Source: Lophium mytilinum (lineage: Eukaryota). Taken from it: a stretch of DNA of 64,000 nucleotides. The stretch covers positions 871,673 to 935,672 of the forward strand of contig MU004188.1 of the NCBI GenBank assembly GCA_010093605.1. Direction: 5' to 3'. This document shows positions 1,931-4,853 of the stretch, one piece after another; position 1 is the stretch's first letter; every line of letters begins with the position of its first letter. The translations under genes and the position numbers were made by a program. The notes beneath the pieces were generated by a model, which saw only the letters and a program-made list of their open reading frames with translations, had not been told where the DNA came from and ran no database searches.

Positions 1931-2142
1931 AGGGGGATGTACTGTACGAAACAAAGTTCAGGGTCAGGCAACTTGGTCACCAAAGCGGCACCCGACACAG
2001 AATCACGCAAAGCTAGAAATGAATCAAAGTAACTGTATTACATTTGCATGATATACTAGAGTTCTTTCGTAGTATCATGCCTGTCCCAAGTTAGTCTATG
2101 CGTACTACCAAAGTCTGCTAGAACAAAAGACGATGTTGGGGT

Positions 2143-2232
2143 AATTTCAGATCTCCAAGGTGATTGGTTTTGTATCTTCAACGGAAGTTCCTCAGTAAGA
2201 ACACAGCGAAATAAGATTGTTCATCATTGAGT
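2143..2232 (-). ncRNA. Box C/D snoRNA, U55/SNORD55-like, with a second guide for 5.8S rRNA
   Basis: C ATGATGA (2227-2221), D' CTGA (2195-2192), C' TTGAAGA, D CTGA (2150-2147). The D guide TCACCTTGGAGA pairs with LSU UCUCCAAGGUGA. The D' guide ATTTCGCTGTGTTCTT pairs with 5.8S AAGAACGCAGCGAAAU with one G-U pair. Confidence 0.88.
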
Positions 2233-2455
2233 AAGGGGAAGAGGAAGAGAAGAAGAGAATGAGCTTACCAGTCATGGCCCGACCAGCGGGGAAGCACGTT
2301 GTTACCTGCCCCAGCAATGGATGCGTCAGCGAGTGTTCCTTGAAAAGCAATTTGGTATGATGCCAAATGTTAAAAACATGTCAAGGACCATCTGCAATCA
2401 GGCTTTGCGCCTTCGGTTAGCCTCGAACAAGATCCGGAGTATTGTTGAGGATAGC

Positions 2456-2560
2456 ATACCTCATTAAATCAGAATTTTCAGTGTTTACTGCTCATTCCGG
2501 ACATGCCCTCGTTAGGGGCAGCCGGTCACACAGTGTGAATATAGCTTATCATCATAGTAT
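2456..2560 (-). ncRNA. snR51: Box C/D snoRNA, snR51-like
   Basis: C ATGATGA (2555-2549). Guide TATTCACACTG before D' GTGA pairs with LSU CAGUGUGAAUA (yeast Um2729 site). Guide ACACTGAAAAT before CTGA (2472-2469) pairs with AUUUUCAGUGU. CTGATTTAATGAG is complementary to SSU CUCAUUAAAUCAG. Confidence 0.85.
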
Positions 2561-2669
2561 AGATGGCCCGTTGATCGAAAGGGAAGAAAAATATGTACCT
2601 TTGAAATCTAGTCCAAGGTTAGTTGGGTCCATTGATGAGACGCGATGGAATAATTGTTCGTGTCAGTCG

Positions 2670-2806
2670 GTAATCAGAATACGCTGTTCTCAACAAGTAC
2701 ATCCCCAGACCGAGCACCCACAGAGTTTGTACGCTCTGCTTTTTGCGGATGCTAGCCTAACGACGACGATCTGCCCGCCCATCGCGTTGGGGTATCATCA
2801 TATAGA
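2670..2806 (-). ncRNA. snR70: Box C/D snoRNA, snR70-like
   Basis: C ATGATGA (2801-2795). Guide GCGATGGGCGG before D' CAGA (2773-2770) pairs with SSU CCGCCCGUCGC, and the +5 rule points to the Cm1639-equivalent. D CTGA (2677-2674). Confidence 0.85.
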
Positions 2807-2915
2807 ATATGTGGCAGGGAATTTGGAAGATTGGGAGGAGTATATGTACCTAGTCGAAGAGAGGCGTTAGCTATGCTGTCGACGAAATTTGGCATGCAGA
2901 AAATATGTATTGAGG

Positions 2916-3012
2916 AGCAAATCAGACAAGGCTGAAACTAGTTACGGTAGTATCGACAAAATATGTTCAGATTGAGGAATGCCTTTCCATGTCATATTGT
3001 CATCACAATGCT
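2916..3012 (-). ncRNA. snR41: Box C/D snoRNA, snR41-like
   Basis: C GTGATGA (3006-3000), D' CTGA (2970-2967), D CTGA (2925-2922). The 13-nt guide AGTTTCAGCCTTG pairs with SSU CAAGGCUGAAACU (Gm1126-equivalent). Short terminal stem AGCA/TGCT. Confidence 0.88.
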
Positions 3013-3174
3013 TGGGGAGAGAACGAAGAAGGAGAAAGAGCGTGTACCTTTTGAGAGCAACGTTGAGGTCGAAGTTGATGATGGAAGGAGCTGGCTGGAA
3101 AAGAATCTGCGGCAATGTCAATTAGCAAATGAGAACGCAAAGCCTTCTGACAAGGTGCATGAGCATCGCTGGTT

Positions 3175-3249
3175 TGCCTCATGGTTTTAAGGTAGTCCTT
3201 CACGATGTTATAGGAATTGGATTGTTCGTAAGATGTGTAATCATTGGCA
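3175..3249 (-). ncRNA. Probable box C/D snoRNA with a guide to the LSU A-loop region
   Basis: C ATGATTA (3244-3238), D ATGA (3182-3179), terminal stem TGCC/GGCA. Guide GAACAATCCAA pairs with LSU UUGGAUUGUUC. The boxes are degenerate. Confidence 0.6.
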
Positions 3250-3718
3250 GCAGCGGATGCGTTCAAAATTTGCGCTTACCATGAGTGAGTGCCGAGAGCC
3301 AGCTAATGTTAGCTGCGAGACCGCTGCCACTGCCAAAGCGAGGCCATCATATGATAGCAACAACGCGTGGTGATGGCAAAGTTGTGGTGGTGTTGCGGAT
3401 GTTGGGTGGAAGTAAAGCTCCGAGAAAAAGTTCTGCAGTTGACCTGGAGCTGTGGCCGCTAGTCTCGATCAGATAGCGCCAAGATATCACGTGGGTGTCA
3501 GCATCGTCGACGACCTCACGTCTTAGAACTTCGTCTCACCTGGTTGTAAGTGCATTGTTTATGTCTGTTTCCATTCAATTGTCAAGTTTTATTTTATTTT
3601 ATTCTACTTCGTGATATCATACAGACTGTCTGGGCAGATTTGGTGGACTAATTGGACAGCATAGCTAATGAGAGCATGAAAGCCTCCTAGACCCTCGAAA
3701 GGAGAAGGTGTCGTTCCC

Positions 3719-4853
3719 TCACTTCTTCGCACCGTCCAAGTCCGAGTAGAACTTGTATCCGAAGCTACCCGACGGGTCATTGAACCTCAACTTCTTGTCG
3801 ATCGTCTCGATCTTCTTCAAGTCCTCCGCATCCAACTTGAAGTCGCCCTCCAAGTTCGCCTTGATACGCGACTCGGTCTTGCTCTTCGGGATGACTGAAT
3901 GACCGAGCGTGATACCCCATGCGAGCGCGACCTGGGCGCCCGACTTGCCGCCATGCTTCTTGCCGATCTCAACAAGGACGGGGTCATCCATGAGCTTACC
4001 CATGGACTTGCCAGAGTCGTAGATCTCGTTCTGATTGCCAAAGGGGCTGTACTGGGTGACGTGGATGCCCTTCTGCTTGTGCCACTCGATGAAGTCCTTC
4101 TGTTGTAGCCATGGGTGGAGCTCCATCTGGTGGGCGGCAGGGACCTGATCAATGTCAGCAAGAACCTAAGCTCATGCTTATGCACGACGAATCCGTGAAA
4201 CAATGGAAGGTACTTACGACACTCGTCTCCTTGAGTAGCCTCTCCAGCTCTCCCTTGCTGAAGTTGGAAACACCAATCGCCTTGACCTTCCCAGACTCTA
4301 CTAACTTCTCCATCGCCTTGTAGGTGTCGACGAAATCCGTATCTCCCACCTTGAACTTCCCGTTCGAGTCCTTCGGCATCAGCTCCTCACCCCTCGCGAA
4401 CGCCGCCGGCCAGTGCATCAAGTAGAGATCGATGTAGTCGACCCCAAGGTCCTTCAGCGACGCATCGGCCTCCTTCTCCACATCCTCGGGATGATGGCCG
4501 TGATTCCACAGCTTGGTCGTGATGAAGATCTCGCTGCGAGGAACGCCGGAGTGTTTGATAGCTGCGCCGACTGCGGGCTCCGTGCCGTAGATGCGTGCAG
4601 TATCGATGTGGCGGTAACCGGCTTTCAAGGCGGCGATGACGGCAGGCTCTTGTGCCTCCTTGTCCTGCCAGGTGCCAAATCCAATGGCTGGGATGGGAGC
4701 GCCCGTGTTCAGCTTCTGAATAGTGGGTGCCATTTTGACTTGTTTTCGTAGAGTTGTGGTAGAGAAGGAAGAGAAGGAAGGTGTTGTGTTGTGAAGTCGT
4801 GCAGTGAACCGCGGGGCAGATAAAAAGAACGTTCGAGTAGCAGCGGAAGTCAT
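3719..4853 (-). CDS. Aldo/keto reductase (GCY1/YPR1-type)
   Basis: Motifs GFGTW, GYRHIDTA.IY, ITTKLW, DLYLMHWP, IGVSNF, IPKS. One intron, 4217-4145. In-frame ATGs at 4853 and 4733. Confidence 0.95.

Follow-up and report, generated by a model that had tools for sequence, protein, structure and literature searches.

A zero-length exon between the snR41 and snR70 introns of a snoRNA host gene in Lophium mytilinum

The stretch of Lophium mytilinum DNA analyzed here (64,000 nt, positions 871,673 to 935,672 of contig MU004188.1, assembly GCA_010093605.1; hereafter "the window") holds a filamentous-ascomycete snoRNA host gene, that of snR41-snR70-snR51 ("cluster III"). The gene lies on the minus strand, and its features are therefore read from higher to lower window positions (Table 1). 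Rfam matches, C and D boxes, a conserved motif and RNA joints place snR41, snR70 and snR51 in the cluster III order, with one snoRNA per intron. The host RNA is non-coding, i.e., its useful products are the intron-borne C/D snoRNAs. A protein-coding reading of the gene was considered and rejected, as the longest ATG-initiated open reading frame in the spliced model has 40 codons.

The exon–intron structure draws on two public sequencing runs, X1 and X2, that are kept as contigs and are only presumed to be RNA. X1 matches the window at ≥99% in 8 of 8 records and, because its contigs are spliced (six GT..AG joints, including 4142/4216 in the neighboring protein-coding gene), we treated it as cDNA. 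X2 comes from a relative whose sequence is 90–95% alike. Contigs of this kind hold no lariats, no excised-intron 5' ends and no kinetics, they drop rare forms, and their depths are not fluxes.

Table 1. Features of the host gene in window coordinates, with their signals and the evidence that places them (a slash between two numbers marks an RNA joint).
Feature	Position	Strand	Length, signals and content	Basis
Exon 1	3280..3392	-		X1 record 4 covers 3280-3392 and 3048-3106
Intron A	3107..3279	-	173 nt; GTAAGC...GCTAAT...CAG	X1 joint 3106/3280, CT..AC, depth 4014.7
Exon 2	3048..3106	-	59 nt; end CTCAAAAG at 3048	Sequence and X1 joints
Intron I	2850..3047	-	198 nt; donor GTACAC at 3047	X1 joint 2849/3048, CT..AC ends
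Afu_455 (snR41 type), C/D snoRNA	2920..3010	-		RF01860, 69.9 bits (gathering 48), full length
Zero-length exon	2844..2852	-	TAG (2852-2850) abutting GTACAT (2849-2844)	Sequence, X1 RNA, relatives
Intron II	2608..2849	-	242 nt; donor GTACAT, branch site ACTAAC (A at 2619), acceptor TAG 2610-2608	X1 records 2 and 3
snR70-type C/D snoRNA	2672..2803	-	About 130 nt	C box 2801-2795, D box 2677-2674
Exon 3	2599..2607	-	9 nt; ATTTCAAAG	X1 contig, between 3048 and 2307, depth 1418
Intron III	2306..2598	-	293 nt; donor GTACAT, CTGAC 2329-2325, acceptor CAG 2308-2306	X1, 9-nt exon joined to 2305
snR51-type snoRNA, in intron III	2559-2452	-		snR51 38.5 bits (below gathering 44); snR67 30.5 bits
Intron B, inside snR51	2403..2459	-	57 nt; GTATGC...GCTAAC...AAG	Joint 2402/2460, depth 728.7 in X1 and 267.1 in X2
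Exon 4	2269..2305	-	37 nt	X1 joints at 2305 and 2079/2268 (cut +1)
Intron C	2081..2268	-	188 nt; carries Afu_294	X1 joint 2079/2268, cut +1
Afu_294, C/D snoRNA	2231-2144	-		RF01506, 67.6 bits (gathering 43)
Last exon	from 2080	-		X1 joints

At the upstream end of the gene, an X1 contig carries adapter sequence directly behind 3392, i.e., a cDNA end, which suggests that the 5' end of the host RNA lies near this position. Within intron A, the Rfam search gave no match on the minus strand, and the C/D boxes that can be picked out by eye are imperfect. Intron A would correspond to the "U45" intron described in the cluster III account of Luo et al. (2013; PLoS One 8:e58547, PMC3596301), by which it would be expected to carry a snoRNA.

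The snoRNAs themselves are recognizable to different degrees. The Afu_455 snoRNA of intron I has its C box at 3006-3000 and its D box at 2925-2922. The snoRNA of intron II (2803-2672) matched no Rfam family, and its conserved 5' guide includes GGGCGG; we take snR70 to target a CCGCCC stretch of 18S rRNA, which gives a second basis for using that name here. Otherwise the designation as snR70-type rests on the boxes, on the conserved motif and on the order of the cluster as laid out by Luo et al. (2013). In intron III, removal of intron B brings the D box (CTGA, 2401-2398) beside the snR51 antisense element, and in both X1 and the relative X2 intron B is spliced while intron III is still retained. 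Two further Rfam matches, a plus-strand snoR127 (E = 4.7) and a snoR442 (E = 5.7), were treated as noise. In Aspergillus fumigatus, Afu-455 forms one cluster with Afu-277 and Afu-294, and that study predicts Gm1122 of 18S rRNA as the guide target of Afu-455, and Um2706 of 26S and Am97 of 18S rRNA as those of Afu-277 (Jöchl et al., 2008; PMC2377427).

The placement of the snoRNAs within their introns is nearly uniform. From the D box to the start of CTAAC, three snoRNAs of the host gene show spacings of 51, 51 and 52 nt (2925-2922 to 2870, 2677-2674 to 2622, and 2150-2147 to 2094, respectively). Hirose and Steitz (2001) reportedly found that intronic C/D snoRNAs favor such a distance from the branch point that follows them.

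Between the snR41 and snR70 introns there is no exon, either in the genomic sequence or in the X1 RNA. Reading along the minus strand, the branch site GCTAAC (2871-2866, with its A at 2867) is followed by fifteen bases, by TAG at 2852-2850 and, with nothing in between, by GTACAT at 2849-2844. A complete 3' splice site thus stands immediately before a 5' splice site, which is the arrangement that characterizes recursive splicing at a zero-length exon. The same GTACAT hexamer recurs at 2598-2593, directly after the 9-nt ATTTCAAAG, and together introns I and II cover 3047..2608, i.e., 440 nt (198 + 242). A preliminary description of this DNA, made from the sequence alone, had claimed abutting introns at TAG/GTACAT (the slash here marking the splice boundary), an upstream exon ending in AAG, a donor hexamer shared with a later intron and a combined span of 440 nt; each motif and each coordinate of the abutment was recovered on the minus strand, the AAG end and the repeated hexamer lie where that description had put them, and the span is correct.

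As a motif, this arrangement is not by itself rare. The pattern CTAACN{5,25}AGGTA has two matches on the two strands of the 64-kb window (2847-2870 and 2596-2622), both of them in the host gene; since 1.01 matches are expected by chance and two or more turned up in 27 of 100 shuffles, the count alone is not significant. What lifts the junction above chance is its position relative to the D boxes, its use in RNA, and its conservation within spacers that have otherwise diverged.

Use of the junction in RNA comes from X1. Its record 3 (300 letters, depth 392.6) joins exon 2 to 2849 and continues to 2580. With 35 letters on the exon-2 side, it skips 2850-3047 at a canonical GT..AG cut and still carries all of intron II, then the 9-nt exon and the first part of intron III (the joint 2849/3048 is listed as 2844/3043, "cut +5," with 7 ambiguous letters). 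This is the intermediate from 3048 to 2849 that the preliminary description had predicted, naming its absence, together with detection of a single 3047-2608 lariat only, as the result that would overturn the idea. The fully spliced form, 3048 to 2607, is also present: record 2 (depth 728.7) ends at 2609 and then runs into exon-2 letters, and a second contig agrees. That record consists of exon 2, the 9-nt exon and a retained 2598-2460, from which only intron B has been removed, and in a contig of depth 1418 the 9-nt exon follows exon 2 at 2607 and is itself spliced on to 2305. Exon 2 being joined to 2607, the final product keeps nothing of the internal site at 2852-2844. Among the X1 pieces listed, none covers 2914-3014 and none shows intron II lost with intron I kept, contigs being a form of data from which rare species are dropped.

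In the relative, an X2 contig runs unspliced from 2279 to 2986, apart from intron B, and so crosses 2850/2849; it shows the existence of precursors only. Beyond its end at 2986, this contig carries 26 loose letters similar to a diverged end of exon 2 (2983-2986, minus strand). These letters would place exon-like sequence just after an AG inside the snR41-type snoRNA, and the end at 2986 may represent either a contig artefact or the use of a cryptic acceptor, by which the snoRNA would be destroyed.

The next junction, between the snR70 and snR51 introns, is not exon-less here, as ATTTCAAAG is present in the spliced X1 contigs; the loose X1 ends at 2609 and 3048 agree with a 9-nt exon at 2599-2607. 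In relatives, a second abutting AG/GT occurs at this junction in 37 of the 44 clusters that reach snR51 (among the matches listed), and the window likewise has AAG/GT at 2601-2597. In X1, however, the acceptor used in RNA is an earlier TAG at 2610-2608, 11 nt past the branch A, and therefore nine bases ending in AAG remain in the spliced RNA. One suggestion of the preliminary description fared less well against these data. It had read the 9-nt exon as a sign of exon erosion in progress, but with a zero-length exon at this place in 37 of 44 listed clusters the exon-less state looks prior. Nor does the next intron end where a simple reading would put it: in the RNA the 9-nt exon continues at 2305, and snR51 has the 57-nt intron B inside it. 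On sequence comparison, the 9-nt exon looks like a departure, specific to this lineage, from a state with no exon and not like a step of erosion, this direction of change being drawn solely from the distribution among the listed clusters. Exon 4 begins with GTAACA, and its ligation to the 9-nt exon recreates a donor-like AAG/GTAACA (2300-2307, minus strand); use of this site as a donor was not found among the X1 joints listed.

To place the snR41/snR70 junction in a wider context, metagenome contigs were scanned with a query composed of the snR41 C box, 3' guide and D box, which returned at least 107 loci. The snR70 motif GGGCGG[AG]C lies within 300 nt downstream of snR41 in 94 of 107 loci among the matches listed, and in 89 of these 94 listed loci snR70 is preceded by a YTRAY branch site with AG/GT no more than 40 nt behind it. 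The median distance from D box to branch site is 52 nt among the loci listed (range 45–71). Thirteen of the 107 listed loci were left out before clustering (10 lacking motif or abutment, locus L007, and 2 that were too short). Clustering of the spacers at 80% identity then gave, among the matches listed, 68 clusters besides the window. The spacers have otherwise diverged freely, the closest listed locus being 71% alike to the window.

Abutment is nevertheless kept across these diverged spacers. Under a loose rule (an abutting AG/GT after a branch site) it occurs in 63 of the 68 listed clusters. Under a strict rule, by which the first AG at least 5 nt past the branch A of CTRAY must precede GT, it occurs in 54 of 68, as compared with a mean of 1.5 and a maximum of 5 in 200 mononucleotide shuffles of the spacers of these clusters. 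Nine of the 14 listed clusters that miss the strict rule do have AG/GT, with either a TTRAY site or an extra AG 6–7 nt past the branch A. Because strict abutment is found in 54 of 68 listed clusters vs. a shuffle mean of 1.5, we conclude that the internal donor is under selection. The junction consensus is YAG/GTA, with A at +3 in 53 of the 54 listed clusters.

The exon that precedes intron I is constrained as well. It ends in AAG/GT in 59 and in AAAG/GT in 53 of the 66 listed clusters with enough upstream sequence, as against 3.65 on average, and 9 at most, in the corresponding shuffles. The two donors differ at position +5: in the listed clusters the internal donor has G in 12 of 54 (A in 30, T in 9, C in 3), while the donor of intron I has G in 55 of 59, the window's own GTACAC being one of the few exceptions. 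From this composition we infer that the internal donors may rely on being joined to a favorable exon end.

Five of the 94 listed loci with the snR70 motif depart from the common pattern. By eye, three (L001, L009 and L049) appear to have exons of 4–5 nt between the snR41 and snR70 introns, and one (L024) would have a 46-nt spacer that lacks splice signals, in the manner of a budding-yeast polycistron. The fifth (L105) has AG/GT with an odd branch site. Apart from these, five GC-rich marine contigs (L044, L058, L070, L077 and L091) show the snR41 pattern with no snR70 motif in the following 300 nt and presumably come from a different group of organisms with another gene arrangement.

Taken together, these observations support the recursive-splicing interpretation put forward in the preliminary description, and we consider it very probable that introns I and II are two complete, touching introns, of which I is removed first and II is removed from the regenerated donor, with one snoRNA per lariat. 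Each intron has its own donor, its own acceptor and its own branch site about 51 nt past the D box, and exon 2 would supply the exonic half of each regenerated donor. Departure of intron I would bring the AAAAG end of exon 2 against GTACAT and so create a new donor, AAG/GTACAT. Intron II would then be removed between this donor and the acceptor at 2608, and each snoRNA would exit in its own lariat, to be trimmed to size after debranching. The intermediate and the final product are seen in X1; the use of the regenerated AAG/GTACAT in the second step, the order of the steps and the two separate lariats we infer. A stronger version, in which the order is hard-wired—weak internal donors would need the AAAAG exon end—and the 9-nt exon was born from a ratchet point, is possible and we hold it only tentatively, considering it rather doubtful as a whole. 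Under it, a single upstream exon end would be reused for each successive intron, which would enforce a strict 5' to 3' release of the snoRNAs, and a new AG 9 nt upstream of an old AAG/GT would have turned a zero-length exon into one of 9 nt.

The rivals to stepwise removal differ mainly in what they leave unexplained. All RNA forms seen in X1 and X2 would also be compatible with a single functional donor at 3047 that pairs with either 2850 or 2608, such that the 3048 to 2849 RNA is a side product and pairing with 2608 removes all 440 nt in one lariat. Luo et al. (2013) name this as an alternative to stepwise splicing, and the weakness of the internal donors at +5 (G in 12 of 54 listed clusters) speaks for it. 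Yet a single donor leaves unexplained why GTA follows the acceptor AG in 63 of the 68 listed clusters, whose spacers are less than 80% alike, as well as why the AAAAG exon end is conserved; each snoRNA lies 51–52 nt before a branch site of its own, and if both snoRNAs left in one 440-nt lariat, an additional cut between them would be required. We therefore regard this explanation as improbable. Somewhat less probable again is that the two introns abut but are spliced independently and in no fixed order, so that intron II may leave first from TAG/GTACAT and the regenerated donor is not needed. Here the precursor donor does already have AG at −2 and −1, and for cluster II of the Candida parapsilosis group two alternative orders are described by Donovan et al. 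(2016; PLoS One 11:e0163235, PMC5033589). Against it, no contig among the X1 pieces listed has lost intron II while keeping intron I (with the reservation that rare forms are dropped from contigs), and Luo et al. (2013) saw no such form, either among their 42 ESTs or when they looked for it in two yeasts by targeted RT-PCR.

That the juxtaposition is a coincidence in an ordinary 440-nt intron, with the 3048 to 2849 contig a rare cryptic event or an assembly artefact, we consider extremely unlikely. The motif count in the window, which is not above chance, would allow for it. However, a de Bruijn chimera at k = 31, which we take to be the k value of the Logan contigs, would require a longer overlap than the 7 letters common to both sides of the joint, and abutment in 63 (loose rule) or 54 (strict rule) of the 68 listed clusters stands against a shuffle mean of 1.5.

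Recursive splicing at ratchet points, where an acceptor abuts a donor that is regenerated by the first ligation, is known from Drosophila and vertebrates. Those ratchet points subdivide introns of tens of kilobases, whereas the introns here measure 198 and 242 nt, and the likely benefit of abutting introns at this locus is that each snoRNA receives a lariat of its own. In filamentous fungi, consecutive splicing also removes one continuous intervening sequence in stwintrons, but there one intron lies inside another and splits its donor, its branch site or its acceptor, while here the signals of both introns are intact and the introns merely touch. Assignment to the stwintron class was accordingly rejected, the six signals of introns I and II being intact and contiguous in the genomic sequence.

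The closest precedent is cluster III of filamentous ascomycetes, which Luo et al. (2013) describe as "intron-intron-intron" and for which they give EST evidence of stepwise 5'-to-3' splicing. Their 42 EST products comprised 18 that lacked intron I alone, 14 that lacked introns I and II, and 10 that lacked all three, with none in the reverse order. The same paper reports additional snoRNA introns A and C, an intron B that separates the antisense element of snR51 from its box D, and the absence of both interior exons in all Euascomycete species. The Lophium locus agrees in having the three snoRNAs in the same order, one per intron, with no exon between snR41 and snR70; in having extra snoRNA introns before and after, and a 57-nt intron B in snR51; and in yielding an intermediate that lacks intron I alone. 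It differs in the 9-nt exon between the snR70 and snR51 introns, which is present in RNA.

In budding yeasts, the same junction of the same cluster has been described with the same term and mechanism: Donovan et al. (2016) give the snR41/snR70 exon of Debaryomyces hansenii cluster III a size of zero, state that it "requires recursive splicing," and put the corresponding exon of the Candida parapsilosis group at 1 nt. Those species have TACTAAC branch sites, in contrast to the present locus, which follows the pattern of filamentous fungi and has the extra introns A, B and C. For small or absent exons in Candida clusters, these papers cite Mitrovich et al. (2010). A further case is the intron of SPNCRNA.445 (snoRNA61) in Schizosaccharomyces pombe, where spliceosome profiling identified a zero-length exon that is described as conserved in sister species (Chen et al., 2018; bioRxiv 10.1101/226894). 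There too a 3' splice site adjoins a 5' splice site in a snoRNA host transcript, though the cluster and the lineage are different, and the internal sites were mapped directly by 5'-P and 3'-OH ends.

The arrangement has thus already been published, and the locus is a correct rediscovery, the kind of element being already known. It is useful mainly as a clean example with RNA support and comparatively good documentation. It adds one more well-supported case in which short fungal introns are spliced recursively, and its non-coding host gene is reduced almost wholly to splice signals. The conserved internal donor and AAAAG exon end, from a set of at least 68 clusters, lend some support to the stepwise model that Luo et al. 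(2013) had left open, without settling the question. A single donor at 3047 predicts the same RNAs but does not explain the conserved GTA or the conserved exon end. There is a practical consequence as well: in the output of annotation pipelines and spliced aligners, a single 440-nt intron with two snoRNAs will appear, so that the rule of one snoRNA per intron is broken only in appearance, and admitting a zero-length exon gives the right gene model.

Upstream of the host gene, the neighboring protein-coding gene, also on the minus strand, has a 73-nt GT..AG intron at 4143-4215 that corresponds to the X1 joint given above, and in the relative X2 the joint is slightly shifted (4144/4222, with 4 extra letters).
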